Shown: positions 2,985-23,915, counted from the stretch's first letter. The stretch is 64,000 bases of DNA from Escherichia coli (GCF_041886205.1 NZ_CP169029.1); one strand, 5' to 3'. Translations and numbers: made by a program. Notes: generated by a model from the letters alone, not told the origin.

Positions 2985-4334
2985 ATGTCTGAAATTGTTG
3001 TCTCCAAATTTGGCGGTACCAGCGTAGCTGATTTTGACGCCATGAACCGCAGCGCTGATATTGTGCTTTCTGATGCCAACGTGCGTTTAGTAGTCCTCTC
3101 GGCTTCTGCTGGTATCACTAATCTGCTGGTCGCTTTAGCGGAAGGGCTGGAACCTGGCGAGCGATTCGAAAAACTCGACGCAATCCGCAATATCCAGTTT
3201 GCCATTCTGGAACGTCTGCGTTACCCGAACGTTATCCGTGAAGAGATTGAACGTCTGCTGGAGAACATTACTGTTCTGGCAGAAGCGGCGGCGCTGGCAA
3301 CGTCTCCGGCGCTGACAGATGAGCTGGTCAGCCACGGCGAGCTGATGTCGACCCTGCTGTTTGTCGAAATCCTGCGCGAACGCGATGTTCAGGCACAGTG
3401 GTTTGATGTACGTAAAGTGATGCGTACCAACGACCGATTTGGTCGTGCAGAGCCAGATGTAGCCGCGCTGGCGGAACTGGCCGCGCTGCAGCTGCTCCCA
3501 CGCCTCAATGAAGGCTTAGTGATCACCCAGGGATTTATCGGTAGCGAAAATAAAGGTCGTACAACGACGCTTGGCCGTGGAGGCAGCGATTATACGGCAG
3601 CCTTGCTGGCGGAGGCTTTACACGCATCTCGTGTTGATATCTGGACCGACGTCCCGGGCATCTACACCACCGATCCACGCGTGGTTTCCGCAGCAAAACG
3701 CATTGATGAAATCGCGTTTGCCGAAGCGGCAGAGATGGCAACTTTTGGTGCAAAAGTACTGCATCCGGCAACGTTGCTACCCGCAGTACGCAGCGATATC
3801 CCGGTCTTTGTCGGCTCCAGCAAAGACCCACGCGCAGGTGGTACGCTGGTGTGCAATAAAACTGAAAATCCGCCGCTGTTCCGCGCGCTGGCGCTTCGTC
3901 GCAATCAGACTCTGCTCACTTTGCACAGCCTGAATATGCTGCATTCTCGCGGCTTCCTCGCGGAAGTTTTCGGCATCCTCGCGCGGCATAACATTTCGGT
4001 AGACTTAATCACCACGTCAGAAGTGAGCGTGGCATTAACCCTTGATACCACCGGTTCAACCTCCACTGGCGATACGTTGCTGACGCAATCTCTGCTGATG
4101 GAGCTTTCCGCACTGTGCCGGGTGGAGGTGGAAGAAGGTCTGGCGCTGGTCGCGTTGATTGGCAATGACCTGTCAAAAGCCTGCGGCGTTGGCAAAGAGG
4201 TATTCGGCGTACTGGAACCGTTCAACATTCGCATGATTTGTTATGGCGCATCCAGCCATAACCTGTGCTTCCTGGTGCCCGGCGAAGATGCCGAGCAGGT
4301 GGTGCAGAAGCTGCATTTTAATTTGTTTGAGTAA
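2985..4334 (+). CDS. lysC: Lysine-sensitive aspartokinase III
   Basis: 449-aa ORF starting MSEIVVSKFGGTSVADFDAMNRSADIV; aspartokinase with C-terminal ACT domains. Confidence 0.98.
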   Translation: MSEIVVSKFGGTSVADFDAMNRSADIVLSDANVRLVVLSASAGITNLLVALAEGLEPGERFEKLDAIRNIQFAILERLRYPNVIREEIERLLENITVLAEAAALATSPALTDELVSHGELMSTLLFVEILRERDVQAQWFDVRKVMRTNDRFGRAEPDVAALAELAALQLLPRLNEGLVITQGFIGSENKGRTTTLGRGGSDYTAALLAEALHASRVDIWTDVPGIYTTDPRVVSAAKRIDEIAFAEAAEMATFGAKVLHPATLLPAVRSDIPVFVGSSKDPRAGGTLVCNKTENPPLFRALALRRNQTLLTLHSLNMLHSRGFLAEVFGILARHNISVDLITTSEVSVALTLDTTGSTSTGDTLLTQSLLMELSALCRVEVEEGLALVALIGNDLSKACGVGKEVFGVLEPFNIRMICYGASSHNLCFLVPGEDAEQVVQKLHFNLFE

Positions 4335-4346
4335 TATTTCCCTACT

Positions 4347-4377
4347 GGCGTATAACGCTCACCAATTGTTATACGCC
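4347..4377 (+). terminator. Hairpin 3' of lysC (possible terminator)
   Basis: 10-bp perfect stem ggcgtataac / gttatacgcc with an 11-nt loop, 13 nt after the lysC stop. No clear U-run. Confidence 0.4.
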
Positions 4378-4478
4378 ATCCTCACTGAAAATATAGATTA
4401 AATAATATCTGAAAAATAAAATCACTCCTGTAGAACAGTATTATAATCACCGAAAAATATTATTTAACAGGAGTGTTA

Positions 4479-5405
4479 ATGGCTACTTTAATGGAAAAAG
4501 ATGCACTTTTAAATGGCACCAGTCAGTGCATCGCGTTTTTATCAAATATCGTTGATAATTGCTCAGTTTCGTCACGTCAGGATTCAGGCGATGATCTCAC
4601 ACGATTAGTCAGCTATCGCGATTATCTTTACTCTACCCCCGCTGAACTTGTTGATTTTACACAGGGAAAGAGTCACCTTCAGCAGATTAGAACTCAATAT
4701 CAGCATGAATTCAACAATACTACGCATTCAGAAAATAAAGCATCTTTTGATTCTATTTGGCAGCGTCTGACAAATCATGAAGTCACACCGCAACAGCATC
4801 CCATTGGTTTTGTTTTAGGTGGGCAACCCGGAGCAGGTAAATCATCTCTGATTGAATTAGCCAAAAGAGAGACAAAAGATAATATAATGATTATTAACGG
4901 TGATGATTTTCGATTTCTACACCCTGATTTTAATTATATCTACCAAAATTATGGGGATGATTTTGTTACCCATACAGCGAAATTTTCCGGCGAAACGGTC
5001 GAACGTGCAATTGAGAGAGCGATAGTCAGTAAACTCAACATTGTTGTCGAAGGAACATTTCGTAATGCCGCTACGCCGTTACAAACATTAAAAAAACTCA
5101 AAGATGCAGGCTACCAAACAGAAGTCATGATAAAAACAACCTCAGCGGCATTAAGCTGGGAAAGCACCAATGAACGGTATAATAAGGACAAAGAGGCGGG
5201 AAATATTGCCCGAAAAGTGGATAAAAACCACCATGATATCGTCACCGGTTTGCTGGCAGAAAATGCCCGCAAGGTGTTTGCTTCGAACCTGTCAGATAAG
5301 TTTGCGGTGTATTCGCGTGAGAAGATGATATTTAGTTCACAAGCGGCAACGAATGACGATATTGCAACGCTTATACAGAATGAAATCAGCGGGAATACAC
5401 AATAA
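4479..5405 (+). CDS. ezeT: Zeta-toxin-family P-loop kinase with an N-terminal extension of about 100 aa (EzeT-like single-chain toxin-antitoxin candidate)
   Basis: ATG at 4479 lies 5 nt after AGGAG (4469-4473). Walker A GGQPGAGKSS is at 4818-4847. The downstream IINGDDFRFLHPDF motif resembles the zeta/PezT catalytic Asp region. There is no separate epsilon-like ORF upstream. The symbol is assigned from recalled domain architecture, not from an alignment. Confidence 0.7.
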   Translation: MATLMEKDALLNGTSQCIAFLSNIVDNCSVSSRQDSGDDLTRLVSYRDYLYSTPAELVDFTQGKSHLQQIRTQYQHEFNNTTHSENKASFDSIWQRLTNHEVTPQQHPIGFVLGGQPGAGKSSLIELAKRETKDNIMIINGDDFRFLHPDFNYIYQNYGDDFVTHTAKFSGETVERAIERAIVSKLNIVVEGTFRNAATPLQTLKKLKDAGYQTEVMIKTTSAALSWESTNERYNKDKEAGNIARKVDKNHHDIVTGLLAENARKVFASNLSDKFAVYSREKMIFSSQAATNDDIATLIQNEISGNTQ

Positions 5406-5431
5406 TAATAAGAGCTGATGGCGTGAAATAA

Positions 5432-5452
5432 CGCCGGGCATCACGCCCGGCG
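5432..5452. terminator. GC-rich hairpin between the convergent kinase and NTase genes (possible bidirectional terminator)
   Basis: cgccgggc-atcac-gcccggcg is an 8-bp stem. The NTase stop codon (5441-5443) sits in the loop. No U-runs on either side. Confidence 0.4.
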
Positions 5453-6241
5453 CATTACCGTCTGGTACATTAAGCTATCCAGTTCCTTAACGTCCCCTTC
5501 TCTGCTATCCGGTAACAGCGGTGGAATTTCCCCACGCGCCAGTTCCGCACGAATAAACGCATGTAACAATGGACGGCGCGGACCATATTCCGCTTCTCCT
5601 GCGCGCTGTTTACGTCCCAGTAATTCGTCTATTTCTGCACGTAACGGCGCATCAAGTTCACTTCCCGCCAGTAGCTCAGCAAAGCGCATTGGCGGCACGC
5701 CTTTTCCCGCTTCGACCCAGCGCACGGCCAGCAGCGGACGCAGCACGTAAAAGTATTTTTTCAGTCGAACTTCATCGCCCTGCAAATATCCGCGGAAGTT
5801 TTTCTGCGCCATCGAATAGTAATGCCAGCGCGCACGCAGCGGAGAAAACCACATTGGGACCATTGCCTTAAGCGCCGTTATCGTTTCTTCATCTTGTTGA
5901 TAGACCACCGGAGAATCCAGCCATTCTATCAGCGTCGGGTTCGCGCCTTTCAATAATCCCAGCGCCTTACGCCACTCCCAACCGGAAACATCTAACTCGT
6001 CGTCGATGGGCAGCTCGATAACATCGCGCGGCGGCTCCACCCGCAGATACCATTCCAGCGGGTGAACATACAAAAACCGTACATCGTAGTCGCTGTCGGG
6101 CGAGGCAAACCCCCAGCCGCGGCTCCCGGATTCACAGGCATACAGCACTTTCACGCCGTAGCGCCGTTCTATTTCTTTTAACTGCTGCGATACCCGTTCG
6201 CGCATCGCAGCACTGACTCCATTTAATGGCATGTTACTCAC
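5441..6241 (-). CDS. Pol-beta-superfamily nucleotidyltransferase, COG3541/PF10127 (RlaP)-like
   Basis: 266-aa ORF with the NTase signature GSRGWGFASPDSDYD (6083-6127; hG[GS]-x9-13-DxD). A helical region follows (WEWRKALGLLKGANPTLIEWLDSPVVY). The GTG at 6241 overlaps the upstream stop; an alternative ATG is at 6232. Confidence 0.75.
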   Translation of the reverse strand: MSNMPLNGVSAAMRERVSQQLKEIERRYGVKVLYACESGSRGWGFASPDSDYDVRFLYVHPLEWYLRVEPPRDVIELPIDDELDVSGWEWRKALGLLKGANPTLIEWLDSPVVYQQDEETITALKAMVPMWFSPLRARWHYYSMAQKNFRGYLQGDEVRLKKYFYVLRPLLAVRWVEAGKGVPPMRFAELLAGSELDAPLRAEIDELLGRKQRAGEAEYGPRRPLLHAFIRAELARGEIPPLLPDSREGDVKELDSLMYQTVMRRA

Positions 6242-7365
6242 CCTTTGATATTAACCAACCCATGCAGAACCTGATCCAGACCGCCAAATACAGAGATGTT
6301 ATCGATCCGCTCAGCCACTCTCTCCAGCGTTTCTAGCTCTTTTAAACGCAACGCTACCGGATTGTTCTCCATGACTTTGGCGGTGTTCAGTAACGAGCGC
6401 GTCGCTGCCGTTTCTTCACGTCGGCGAATCACATTCGCCTGCGCAGATTTCTCCGCCTCAACCAGCTGCGCAAGGATATTTTTCATATCGCCAGGCAGGA
6501 CGATATCTTTCACCCCTAATGAAGCAATCTCCATACCAAATGGCAACATGCGCGATTTCACCTGTTCGCTGACAACGTCATCAATGACCTGTTTATCTTC
6601 CAGCAGTTCATCCAGCGTACGAGTACCTACCGCTTCACGCAGGGCAAATTGCAATTCCCGATACAAATGATCAATCGGCTTCGTTAACTGACTAAATGCT
6701 AATAACACGTCGCTGTAGCGCCAGTTAGCCGCGAGGTTAATCCGCAGATTGACCTTATCTTTCGTTAAGATTTCTTGCCCGCTGACTTCCAGTACCTGCA
6801 AGCGGGTGTCAACCACTTCAGTTTCAACCAGATGGTTAATTTTCCAGTACGCGGTAAGCCCCGGCGGTAACAGCGCCTGCGTTTCACCATCGATTTTCAG
6901 CACGCCTACATGCCAGGCCGGAACCTGCACCGTCAGTATCGCATCGCGGCCTTTAACAACTCCTTTGCGCCGTGGCTGTAATACCGCATTCATCACCTCC
7001 GTTTGTACCGGGACTTGCTGCGTATTCATCCGCACCAGCGTCAAATCATCCTCTACACGCCAGTACAAACGACGCGTTGATGGCAGCAGGATCTCCAGCA
7101 AAATACCGTCCATATACAACGCCCCGGCTTCAGTCTCCGACAAGTCTGCCACCAGGCAATATTTCTCCACCCAATCAGGCTGAAAGCGGCGCAAATAGTC
7201 CGCCAGCACGTCGGGAACTTCGCTACCATCCAGCGTAATCAGCAACACTTCCGGGGTATTAAACCAGGGTAAAAAATGCTCGCCTGCATGTAGCACTTTG
7301 TAGTAATCGCCGTTTCTGGAGAGTAATGCCAGCTGATCTTTTCTTACGCTTATTTTTTTAATCAT
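6238..7365 (-). CDS. SPFH/Band-7 (stomatin/prohibitin/flotillin/HflKC) domain protein with no obvious membrane anchor
   Basis: 375-aa ORF. The C-terminal half carries classic SPFH motifs (QEILTKDKVNLRINL, LREAVGTRTLDELLEDK, FGMEIASLGVKDIVLP, AEKSAQANVIRRREETAA, NPVALRLKELETL). AAGGA lies about 8 nt before the ATG at 7365. No long hydrophobic segment is visible. Confidence 0.8.
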   Translation of the reverse strand: MIKKISVRKDQLALLSRNGDYYKVLHAGEHFLPWFNTPEVLLITLDGSEVPDVLADYLRRFQPDWVEKYCLVADLSETEAGALYMDGILLEILLPSTRRLYWRVEDDLTLVRMNTQQVPVQTEVMNAVLQPRRKGVVKGRDAILTVQVPAWHVGVLKIDGETQALLPPGLTAYWKINHLVETEVVDTRLQVLEVSGQEILTKDKVNLRINLAANWRYSDVLLAFSQLTKPIDHLYRELQFALREAVGTRTLDELLEDKQVIDDVVSEQVKSRMLPFGMEIASLGVKDIVLPGDMKNILAQLVEAEKSAQANVIRRREETAATRSLLNTAKVMENNPVALRLKELETLERVAERIDNISVFGGLDQVLHGLVNIKG

Positions 7366-7518
7366 TATCTATTCCTTGCTTAACAGCCGTCGCGGAAGCA
7401 GACACGAAGCGACAGGGGAATTCCCTTTTGCCTGTTACCCGGCGTCTTTATCGGCGACGTTATCGGGGATCGCTGACTGCGCAATCCCTCATTTTTTATT
7501 TAATAAGTTACAACCAGT

Positions 7519-7650
7519 ATTCATTTCAGGAATGAATGTGGGAATCGAACCCATAATTGGCGTCAAAGGCTGACGGAACACGCCCGGAAAACAGCCTGAC
7601 CGTTCCTGGTGTGCCGACGGGGTTTAACCCCCTTTGAAATTCAGTTTCAA
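7519..7650 (-). ncRNA. Candidate tRNA-like non-coding RNA upstream of the SPFH-NTase operon
   Basis: The minus strand has a canonical T-arm, aUGGG-UUCGAUU-CCCAc (7554-7538). Acceptor-like pairing joins 7645-7639 to 7537-7531 (6 of 7 bp). A cgtc/gacg-closed long arm spans 7619-7561, and there is a small GGGG/CCCC hairpin. The boundaries and the fold are hand-drawn, not computed. Confidence 0.4.
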
Positions 7651-7893
7651 CGCATAGGAGTTATTGCGAGAATCGTGCCAGAAGTAAAAAAAACACCTAA
7701 TCAAATGAAAAATAAAGATTTAATAAATTATTGTTTTTTATTGGGGGAAAACTTTTCGCTAAATTTGTATCTGTATTTATCATCAATTATCAAGAAAGAT
7801 AAATATTTCAGAAGAGAATAAAGGAATATTATCAGTTCTGCTTGCAAATGAATTCCCGTACACTGAATCCATCGGCTCACTGAGGGCACCATC

Positions 7894-8166
7894 ATGGCAC
7901 TCCCCCGTATTACCCAAAAAGAGATGACTGAACGCGAGCAGCGTGAACTTAAAACACTGCTGGATCGGGCGCGGATTGCGCATGGTCGCGTACTGACCAA
8001 CTCCGAAACCAACAGCATTAAGAAAGAGTACATCGATAAATTAATGGTTGAGCGTGAGGCTGAAGCAAAAAAAGCCCGCCAATTGAAGAAAAAGCAGGCT
8101 TATAAACCGGATCCTGAAGCGTCATTTAGCTGGTCAGCAAATACGTCGACGCGCGGCAGGCGCTGA
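7894..8166 (+). CDS. yjbD: DUF3811-family small basic protein YjbD
   Basis: 90-aa ORF starting MALPRITQKEMTEREQRELKTLLDRAR. Convergent with and abutting rluF, as in K-12. Confidence 0.9.
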   Translation: MALPRITQKEMTEREQRELKTLLDRARIAHGRVLTNSETNSIKKEYIDKLMVEREAEAKKARQLKKKQAYKPDPEASFSWSANTSTRGRR

Positions 8167-22313: not shown

Positions 22314-23915
22314 TTACGCTAACAGGCGGTAGCCTGGCAGGGTCAGGAAATCTATTAACTCATCGGAAGTGGTGATCTGTTCCATCAAGCGTGCGGCATC
22401 GTCAAAACGCCCCTGGGAGAAACGTTCTTCGCCCAATTCGCTAGCAATGACTTTCATCTCTTCGTCCAGCATCTGGCGGAACAAGGCTTTGGTAACCGGT
22501 TTGCCATTGCTCAACGTTTTTTGATGATGGATCCACTGCCAGATTGAGGTACGGGAAATTTCAGCCGTCGCCGCATCTTCCATCAGGCCATAAATCGGCA
22601 CACAGCCGTTGCCGGATATCCATGCTTCGATGTACTGCACAGCCACGCGAATGTTGGCGCGCATACCTTCTTCGGTGCGTTCACCATCACAAGGTGCCAG
22701 CAGCTGATCGGCAGTAATCGGCGCGTCTTGTTCGCGCATCACTTCAAGCTGATTTTTACGGGAGCCGAGAATGTCGTTGAATACCGCCATTGCCGTGTCC
22801 GCAAGGCCTGGGTGAGCGATCCATGTGCCATCGTGACCGTTATTGGCTTCCAGCGATTTATCCGCTTTTACTTTGTTGAGCACCTGGTTATTGCGCTCTT
22901 CATCTTTGCTCGGAATAAATGCCGCCATGCCGCCCATCGCAAAAGCACCGCGTTTATGACACGTTTTGATTAACAGGCGTGAGTAAGCATTCAGGAAGGG
23001 TTTATCCATCGTCACTGCCTGTCTGTCTGGCAGGACGCGATCGGGATAGTTTTTCAACGTTTTGATATAACTGAAGATGTAATCCCAACGACCGCAGTTC
23101 AGACCAACAATATGGTCACGCAGCGCGTGAAGGATTTCATCCATCTGGAACACGGCGGGCAGCGTTTCAATCAGCAACGTCGCCTTGATGGTGCCGCGCG
23201 GCAGATTAAAGCGATCTTCTGCATAGCTGAAGACTTCGCTCCACCAGGCCGCTTCCTGCCAGGACTGGGTTTTCGGCAAATAGAAATAGGGACCGCTGCC
23301 CTTTGCCAACAGTGCCTGATAGTTGTGGAAGAAATAGAGCGCAAAATCAAACAGGCTACCGGGGATTGCCTCACCACGCCAGGTGACATGTTTTTCCGGC
23401 AAGTGCAGACCGCGTACCCGACAAATCAAAACCGCTGGATTGGGCTTGAGCTGATAAATTTTGCCTGCTTCATTGGTATAGCTGATGGTGCCGTTAACTG
23501 CATCACGCAGGTTAATTTGCCCGTCGATCACTTTGTTCCAGTCCGGGGCCAGTGAATCTTCGAAATCGGCCATAAAGACTTTCACATTGGCGTTGAGCGC
23601 GTTGATCACCATCTTGCGCTCTACCGGGCCAGTTATCTCTACTCGACGATCTTCTAAGTCCGCAGGAATCCCGCGAACTTTCCAGTTAGCATCACGAATG
23701 GAAGCTGTTTCCGAAATAAAATCAGGCAACGTTCCGTTATCAATATCTTGCTGCTGCTGAATGCGCGCTGCCAGAAGTTTATTGCGTTGTGGCGTAAAAT
23801 GCGTCACCAGCTCAGTCAGAAATTCTACCGCTTCGGCAGTAAGAATTTGCTTCTCCTGTTCGCCATACGGCCTTGTGAAAGCCAGTTCATCGGTTGTTGT
23901 TGCCTGTTCAGTCAT
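22314..23915 (-). CDS. aceB: Malate synthase A
   Basis: 533 aa from the ATG at 23915 ([20 protein letters not shown]...). Confidence 0.98.

Follow-up and report, generated by a model that had tools for sequence, protein, structure and literature searches.

The Band-7-RlaP locus and its leader RNA

In a 64,000-nucleotide stretch of an Escherichia coli chromosome (GCF_041886205.1, NZ_CP169029.1; called the window here, numbered from its first letter and reversed in orientation relative to K-12), the 528-bp spacer between yjbD (7894-8166, plus strand) and a slipin gene of the Band-7 (SPFH) family holds a non-coding element on the minus strand. A preliminary description of the element, at 7519-7650, read it as a tRNA-like RNA with a canonical T-arm and two mutually exclusive acceptor-type pairings. 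The element is more probably a structured domain of about 145 nt (7653-7510) at the 5' end of the transcript from a reduced Rtc-type RNA-repair module, and a degenerate enterobacterial homologue of the band-7-associated tRNA-like RNA (b7a-tRNA); this is the reading that we favor, with some reserve. The preliminary description is confirmed in part, in that the T-arm, a small hairpin (hp1) and the local acceptor-like hairpin are real, whereas neither the cloverleaf nor the acceptor switch finds support.

The Band-7 gene is followed by a gene for an RlaP nucleotidyltransferase, a convergent gene for a zeta-toxin-like kinase, and lysC (Table 1; gene order from the RefSeq annotation of identical strains and from Pfam). 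By inspection, the translated Band-7 protein lacks an N-terminal hydrophobic segment, and its nearest relatives with a solved structure are the stomatins. No Ro60/Rsr (TROVE) gene adjoins the element, the genes of the islet being those for Band-7, RlaP and the zeta-like kinase, and none of these is an integrase. PADLOC returned no defence-system match for the islet Band-7 and RlaP, and no Band-7 homologue was found in the phage genomes searched. The element is chromosomal, its sole "plasmid" matches being records of megabase size.

Table 1. Features of the yjbD-lysC islet and of the Band-7 leader, in window coordinates.
Feature	Position	Strand	Remarks
GATAA/TTATC repeat block TTTATCTTTCTTGATAATTGATGATAAATACAGATAC	7767..7803	minus	candidate RtcR-type enhancer, 87-123 nt upstream of promoter
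Sigma-54-type promoter TGGCACGATTCTCGCAAT	7663..7680	minus	-24 GG at 7679-7678, -12 GC at 7667-7666
5' three-way-junction domain	7560..7653	minus	P1a, P1b, hp1 and LH; equals the minimum-free-energy fold
P1a	7653-7646 with 7567-7560	minus	8-bp version in E. coli
P1b	7644-7641 with 7573-7570	minus	CUGA with UCAG; 100% paired in 27 sequences
hp1	7632-7619	minus	includes GGGG-UUAAA-CCCC
Long hairpin (LH)	7616-7574	minus	93% paired
T-arm mimic	7539..7553	minus	UGGG-UUCGAUU-CCCA; G53-C61 pair, UUCGA loop core
Closed acceptor-like hairpin	7519..7537	minus	AUUCAUU-CCUGA-AAUGAAU; 1 nt after T-arm
Invariant tail ACUGGUUGU	7510..7518	minus	possible D-loop-like GG segment; invariant in 15/16 group-A leaders
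Rest of leader	7366..7509	minus	AU-rich spacer 7509-7489, hairpin 7488-7466, second domain 7459-7388
Shine-Dalgarno AAGGAA	7377-7372	minus	
Slipin/Band-7 (SPFH) gene	6238..7365	minus	375 aa; Pfam Band_7, E 9e-27
RlaP nucleotidyltransferase gene (PF10127)	5441..6241	minus	Pfam RlaP, E 3e-95
Zeta-toxin/AAA_33-like P-loop kinase gene	4473-5405	plus	convergent; then lysC

Promoter and sequence constraint

The leader is preceded by a predicted sigma-54 promoter: TGGCACGATTCTCGCA at 7680-7665 fits the TGGCAC-N5-TTGCW-like pattern with the correct spacing. The spacing places the predicted start at about 7654, some 12 nt downstream of the promoter and at the beginning of the element as first outlined. 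In 38/38 Enterobacterales loci, as well as in several from Orbales and Neisseria, the version TGGCACG-N4-TSGCA precedes the T-loop by a constant distance of about 125 nt. This promoter pattern has two matches in the window against 0.39 expected, and the other match, TGGCACATGGATCGCT, lies at 22815-22830 on the minus strand. The GATAA block upstream of the promoter is a candidate RtcR-type activator site, judged by its sequence; similar TTTATCC-N5-GATAA...GATA repeats adjoin the rtcR start codon in other genera, and the K-12 rtcR-rtcB spacer contains GATA repeats. RtcR is known to be activated by tRNA fragments (PMC7790460). Because the block resembles those beside rtcR, control by the unlinked E. 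coli RtcR is plausible.

Within E. coli the leader is far more conserved than the coding genes that adjoin it. The window strain and O103:H2 12009 agree at 135/135 nt of the RNA core (7644-7510) and have a single difference in the 279 nt of the whole leader (7644-7366), whereas Band-7 and RlaP differ at 4-6% of positions, mostly synonymous sites, and identity upstream of the promoter is no more than 82%. Codon differences between the two E. coli lineages, counted as synonymous to nonsynonymous, are 36:10 for Band-7 and 39:7 for RlaP, as under purifying selection. The zeta-like kinase gene, confined among the loci compared to those of Escherichia (the window and L004), has 8 synonymous and 10 nonsynonymous differences, and on this ratio it looks less constrained than Band-7 and RlaP.

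Fold of the 5' domain

Structure was assessed in an alignment of 16 leaders of the Escherichia/Citrobacter/Klebsiella/Enterobacter/Phytobacter/Yokenella type (group A; alignment A1) and in one of 27 leaders that adds a sister type, group B (alignment A3). The 5' part of the leader forms a three-way junction of P1, hp1 and LH, and the minimum-free-energy fold is identical to this covarying structure. P1b has two covarying positions among the 27 sequences (CG:19/UA:4/UG:4 and AU:18/GC:6/GU:3), P1a is GUCA/UGAC in most genera, GCCA/UGGC in Phytobacter and GUUA/UAAC in K. oxytoca, and LH has compensatory changes at five or more pairs. In a larger alignment of 41 sequences, 86.7% of cells are paired against 72% in shuffles, double changes occur at 28/31 pairs, and the covariation score is 0.515 against 0.242 in shuffles (0/500 as high) and at most 0.158 in slid controls; this alignment was fitted to the model, so its counts lean towards the model, which weakens them as support for the reading, while the MAFFT-based counts for P1b and LH agree with them in direction. 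The G-U intermediates fit the minus strand.

A model of the junction plus the T-arm, built from the 27 leaders, found the held-out loci of Xenorhabdus, Proteus and Providencia at 29-65 bits and some of Burkholderiales at 20-29 bits, with no second copy in the window or in the yjbD-lysC and rtcBA-rtcR regions of K-12. Covariation supports the fold well, and Rfam does not contain it. The GGGG-UUAAA-CCCC hairpin within hp1, included in the preliminary description, is present at 7631-7619. That description had also asked whether the spacer is conserved and covaries among genomes sharing the gene pair; the element is kept in position and covaries across Enterobacterales loci. Its suggestion of a structured RNA in the leader of the SPFH-nucleotidyltransferase operon is supported by the fixed position in 38/38 Enterobacterales loci, the covariation and the conservation.

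Three further helices were considered and set aside. A local 5' hairpin UUGAAA/UUUCAA is only 30% paired, a small hairpin GUCA..UGAC is superseded by the long-range helix P1, and a long-range pairing GYCRG/CUGGU proposed by RNAalifold shows no double changes and is incompatible with a pair that covaries.

T-arm, acceptor-like pairings and the cloverleaf

The T-arm on the minus strand (7553-7539) has exactly the sequence that had been described. The window has four copies of the motif GGTTCRANTCC, where 0.32 would be expected; the three besides the one in the T-arm lie inside called tRNA genes, including glyT. The T-arm stem covaries across taxa (for example, one pair is GC:26, AU:14). Likeness to a canonical tRNA ends there. 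The recommended ARAGORN and Rfam checks reported nothing at the element: ARAGORN found no tRNA at 7519-7650 of the window, and Rfam 15 scans at E up to 10, including one of a 301-nt slice, gave only chance-level snoRNA and RNase P matches and no family. A covariance model of 29 canonical band-7-associated tRNAs matches only the T-arm in the window, at 13.8 bits (E ~1e-3). By ARAGORN, by Rfam and by the energy cost of a cloverleaf, the element is not a canonical tRNA gene with acceptor stem, D-arm, anticodon arm and T-arm.

The strand that follows the T-arm is central to the preliminary description, in which a cloverleaf-like four-way junction of about 115 nt has a 3' acceptor strand (7537-7531) switching between a distal partner, 7645-7639, and a local one, 7525-7519. 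The local 7-bp hairpin is present as described (7537-7519); its pair probability is 0.7-0.83 and it is maintained by compensatory changes across genera (UUCAUU/AAUGAA, UUCACU/AGUGAA, UUUCAU/AUGAAA and UCACC/GGUGA). For the distal pairing, the complementarity of 6/7 in E. coli is there in the sequence, the helix is 82% paired in group A with one position occurring as A-U, G-U and G-C, and in one clade a U-to-C change improves it while breaking a pair of the local hairpin. The structure does not follow from the complementarity, since the 5' strand belongs to the covarying P1b, for which the evidence is stronger: C7644, always mismatched in the distal helix, covaries with G7570 in P1b. Outside E. 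coli the distal pairing is a 4-bp UGAR/YUCA core in which position 2 is never paired. Its predicted probability is about 1e-4, and forcing it costs +7.6 kcal/mol.

The rest of the proposed junction fares no better. Forcing the whole cloverleaf costs +12 kcal/mol, the closing CGUC/GACG stem is 71% paired and not conserved, and the inner 9-bp stem is 64% paired, not conserved and without covariation. In the crossing GGAAC/GUUCC pairing, from which a pseudoknot or alternative fold had been suggested, the sequence is conserved but the pairs never covary, and the pairing is in competition with LH (7616-7574), which does covary. Sister lineages also pair the strand after the T-arm differently, with a strand just upstream of the T-arm, and this pairing covaries in group B, Xenorhabdus and Proteus (GCGAA/UUCGC, GCAAA/UUUGC, CGAUA/UAUCG, GAUG/CAUC). 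The resulting mini-tRNAs of 45-57 nt are recognized end to end by the canonical b7a-tRNA model at 15-23 bits. The cloverleaf with its acceptor switch is thus very unlikely, the small probability that we leave to it being for a transient alternative, because of the one clade in which U-to-C favors the distal pairing.

In group A the parts follow in the order T-arm, closed hairpin of 6-7 bp, 1-2 nt and an invariant CUGGUUGU. The tail ACUGGUUGU resembles AAGUCGGUUU, which is found after the acceptor 5' strand in sister lineages.

Homologous loci in other genera

A protein scan with Band-7, taking one genome per species, gave some 578 loci or more, the best 80 of which were compared, from Enterobacterales to Burkholderiales. 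Of these loci, 76/80 have a T-loop motif whose stem covaries, 180-420 nt ahead of the start of Band-7, and in all 38 Enterobacterales loci examined the element lies between the sigma-54 promoter and the Band-7 gene. It accompanies the operon in unrelated chromosomal contexts. In loci such as L008, L014, L021, L030 and L042 the arrangement is archetypal, with divergent rtcR followed by promoter, RNA, Band-7 and RtcB. RlaP comes after RtcB in L008 and L014 and directly after Band-7 in L021, and it was not detected in L030 and L042; in E. coli, Citrobacter and Klebsiella it directly follows Band-7. The operon of L014 adjoins lysC, like the E. coli islet.

At the same position ARAGORN reports tRNA-like genes, single or as a tandem pair, in Orbales, Neisseriaceae and many Burkholderiales. 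The anticodons assigned to these genes vary and are unusual (ATT, AGG, ACC, TTA, and "anticodons" of 2 and 4 nt), and some of the genes encode CCA. Scores under the canonical model form a gradient, from 50-75 bits in Burkholderiales, through the mini-tRNAs of acceptor plus T-arm in sister Enterobacterales and Morganellaceae (15-23 bits), to E. coli, where only the T-arm is matched.

Two tandem tRNA-like genes, at about -430 to -270 from Band-7, are present in loci of the Burkholderiales type (L052, L065, L068, L070, L071 and L078); the acceptor stem is perfect in the first gene, which often encodes CCA, and degenerate in the second. The same domain of hp1 plus long hairpin as in E. coli precedes the tRNA-like genes in the two tandem loci inspected (L065 and L070) and also in L045, L053 and L060. 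In several Burkholderiales and gammaproteobacterial metagenome-assembled genomes (L050, L060, L063, L066, L067, L070, L075, L080 and L082), arrays of 7-25 canonical tRNA genes for many amino acids directly flank the Band-7 locus. The arrays lie upstream of the Band-7 gene (~3001), and in L080 there is one downstream as well (4175-5468). This suggests tRNA-array islands coupled to the module of Band-7 and tRNA mimic.

Distribution and origin of the islet

The yjbD-lysC islet is carried by 1657/5426 complete E. coli genomes (~30%) and is missing from K-12, with which homology ends at 7764 and restarts at 4334. The K-12 yjbD-lysC spacer (L003 2763-2884) retains a 23-nt patch of the leader, tccgataaagacgctggttaaca, equal to window 7454-7432, and K-12 also retains the GATAA-repeat block upstream of yjbD. 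Because both persist, this spacer is an apparent deletion scar of the operon and not an empty site. Strain PT62, identical to the window across the element, has an IS1 between the zeta-like gene and lysC (L001 9413-10110) that the window lacks. The yjbD identity is 88.6% between the window strain and O103:H2 12009, compared with 98.7% to K-12 for the neighboring core gene lysC; the divergence of yjbD could be a recombination boundary or a divergent allele.

The preliminary description had offered as its alternative a relic of tRNA-targeted integration, in which the T-arm would be the duplicated 3' end of a tRNA gene left as an att-site scar when an island integrated. A T-arm and the 7-mer after it are what tRNA-targeting integrases duplicate, and the islet is absent from K-12. 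The T-arm, however, is set 210 nt in from the left junction (7764), the right one (4334) is over 3 kb away, the islet genes include no integrase, and the element is fixed relative to the promoter and Band-7 in 76/80 loci of varied genera and contexts. Given its position, the lack of an integrase and its conservation with the operon, this origin is rejected as scarcely credible.

A decaying, functionless remnant in E. coli, that is, an eroding copy of an ancestral tRNA-like gene in a locus that has lost rtcR and rtcB, is a further proposal. It is in keeping with the T-arm being the only part that still matches the canonical model, with the lack of the islet in K-12 and most E. coli (K-12 keeping only the 23-nt patch), and with the relaxed constraint on the zeta-like neighbor (8:10). 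Decay does not fit a leader that is nearly invariant (1/279 nt) while synonymous sites of the adjacent genes have diverged (36:10 and 39:7), nor the presence of the same degenerate architecture, with compensatory changes, in Escherichia, Citrobacter, Klebsiella, Enterobacter, Phytobacter and Yokenella. Because of this constraint a functionless remnant is improbable.

Comparison with known tRNA-like RNAs

The closest described counterpart is b7a-tRNA. RtcB is sometimes encoded beside a Band-7 protein and a predicted RNA that strongly resembles tRNA, named b7a-tRNA by Burroughs and Aravind 2016, as summarized in the available text of bioRxiv 10.1101/312249. According to the same text, b7a-tRNA was proposed to be functionally redundant with the tRNA-mimicking Y RNA YrlA and had not been experimentally validated as of 2018. 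A full-text literature search for "b7a-tRNA" matched only Wang et al. 2018. The E. coli element lies directly upstream of Band-7 in an Rtc-type operon, with Band-7 and RlaP downstream, and it is continuous in position with the canonical tRNA-like genes of its relatives, sharing the promoter, the upstream junction and the T-arm position, with the mini-tRNAs as intermediates. It differs in not strongly resembling tRNA (13.8 bits, for the T-arm only, against 50-75 in Burkholderiales); it is not a cloverleaf, has no D-arm or anticodon arm, and in place of an open acceptor stem has a loop-closed one. Its operon lacks rtcB and an adjacent rtcR. In all loci examined, a conserved three-way-junction domain also precedes the tRNA-like part, and the available portion of the Wang et al. 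2018 summary does not mention one. Since the element belongs to the b7a-tRNA class and yet does not look like a tRNA, it is best described as a degenerate variant of that class within a larger conserved RNA outside Rfam.

Salmonella YrlA is encoded in the rsr-yrlBA-rtcBA operon (bioRxiv 10.1101/312249, PMC7790460), and the parts of YrlA RNAs are ordered as T stem-loop, closed acceptor stem-loop, U and A, and then D stem-loop (Chen 2014, PMC4201824). The E. coli element is likewise a non-coding RNA within a sigma-54/RtcR RNA-repair operon (RtcR control being presumed in E. coli), and it likewise has a T-arm, a closed acceptor stem-loop, 1-2 nt (U, A) and a GG-containing segment. Neither has a free CCA end, and both combine a modular scaffold with a tRNA mimic. 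Unlike that of YrlA, the E. coli locus has no Ro60/Rsr gene, and there is no stem joining the 5' and 3' ends, the 5' end pairing instead with 7573-7560 so that both strands of P1 lie upstream of the T-arm. The D stem-loop was not found in the E. coli element; its place is taken by the single-stranded ACUGGUUGU, and it is the T-arm and the closed hairpin of 6-7 bp that covary. The element also matches no Rfam family.

By eye, E. coli AAUGAA-UA-CUGGUUGUAAC (AAUGAA-UA-CUGGUU) resembles the acceptor 5' strand plus D-arm of Orbales, UUUUGAA-UA-GUUCAUCAGGUAGAAC, and also the group-B GCGAA-AA-GUCGGUU. The T-arm of one tRNA together with the D-arm of the next imitates YrlA (Chen 2014, PMC4201824). Because of this remark on tandem tRNAs and the likeness by eye, the E. 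coli form is suggested to be a circularly permuted remnant of tandem tRNA-like genes.

A T-loop or elbow mimic used outside a decoding tRNA is also a feature shared with the tRNA-like domain of tmRNA, viral tRNA-like structures and the MALAT1 mascRNA. In those RNAs the CCA end is free or is generated, or else there is an RNase P site. In the E. coli element the acceptor-like stem is closed, and features for aminoacylation or RNase P are not evident.

The rest of the leader and a role in cis

Downstream of the tail, the second leader domain contains CGUCGC/GCGACG and GUAACAGG/CCUGUCGC, and the helices at 7488-7466 and 7459-7388 have compensatory changes between genera (alignments, RNAalifold). 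The leader motif GGCARAA...CCCCU...UUCG (window 7388-7488, minus strand) is recognizable out to Orbales and Neisseria. The structure at 7388-7488 could represent another RNA module or, lying close to the Shine-Dalgarno sequence, could have a regulatory role.

These features bear on a purely cis-acting role, in which the element would be an mRNA leader that shields the message for Band-7 and RlaP or governs how it is translated or processed (a tRNA-like processing signal being one example) and would have no ribonucleoprotein role in trans. The operon transcript begins with the element, no terminator follows, the 5' end is itself buried in P1, and the whole 290-nt leader is conserved, including the second domain near the Shine-Dalgarno sequence. 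In relatives, however, the position is occupied by full tRNA-like genes, some of which encode CCA and have a complete acceptor stem, and excised RNAs fit these better than a leader does. In Salmonella, YrlA is encoded within the rsr-yrlBA-rtcBA operon. Cis and trans roles are also compatible and may coexist. A role exclusively in cis is accordingly unlikely, though it deserves more weight than a decayed remnant.

Proposed role and significance

The favored reading, a b7a-tRNA homologue at the 5' end of a reduced Rtc-type transcript, suggests the following sequence of events. The sigma-54 promoter at 7680-7663 would start the RNA, presumably when switched on by RtcR, and the first bases of the transcript would pair into P1 of the three-way junction. 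A mimic of the top half of a tRNA would come next, consisting of the T-arm, the closed 7-bp acceptor-like hairpin, which could stack on it, and the invariant GG tail, and the same transcript would run on into the Band-7 and RlaP genes. By analogy with Ro60-YrlA, the RNA would act as a tRNA mimic or a ribonucleoprotein scaffold: the junction domain may bind protein, a candidate partner being a soluble stomatin-like Band-7 oligomer, and the tRNA-elbow mimic may serve as a handle or decoy for RlaP, RtcB or tRNA-directed toxins during a response to tRNA damage. The same analogy would allow the RNA to be active after processing to a small RNA or while it is still the attached leader. RlaP adds 1-2 nucleoside monophosphates to RNA 3' ends and has been proposed to finish the repair of over-trimmed tRNAs (PMC12776372), and the P. 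aeruginosa SPFH protein PaFlo8 is likewise embedded in an rtc locus.

Several observations weigh against the favored reading or parts of it. In the E. coli islet both rtcB and the neighboring rtcR have been lost, with yjbD in the place of rtcR, so that RtcR would have to be assumed to act in trans. Taken alone, the E. coli sequence has an unremarkable fold energy (z = -0.84). A helix of linker and tail closing the T-arm junction is no better than with shuffled linkers, and no partner for ACUGGUUGU is supported. No terminator-like site follows the structured domain, and a free small RNA would therefore need processing. The searchable literature yielded no expression, end-mapping or binding data for the E. 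coli RNA.

A bolder extension, tentative and on balance doubtful, is that the element belongs to a composite family of non-coding RNAs, each with a three-way-junction scaffold and one or two tRNA-like modules. The tRNA part in Escherichia, Citrobacter, Klebsiella and Enterobacter would be a loop-closed top half, possibly permuted, and the RNA would assemble with a soluble stomatin-like cage and RlaP into a particle, similar to Ro/Y-RNA or to a vault, that handles damaged tRNAs; the E. coli form would belong to the RtcR regulon in trans.

The tRNA-like RNAs of Rtc RNA-repair operons, YrlA and b7a-tRNA, are without an established function. About 30% of sequenced E. coli carry a minimal system of one structured RNA, Band-7 and RlaP behind a predicted sigma-54 promoter, which offers tractable genetics for the role of the tRNA mimic, the ligand of a soluble SPFH protein and the targeting of RlaP. 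The loci compared also document the stepwise erosion of a tRNA gene to a mimic of the T-arm only.

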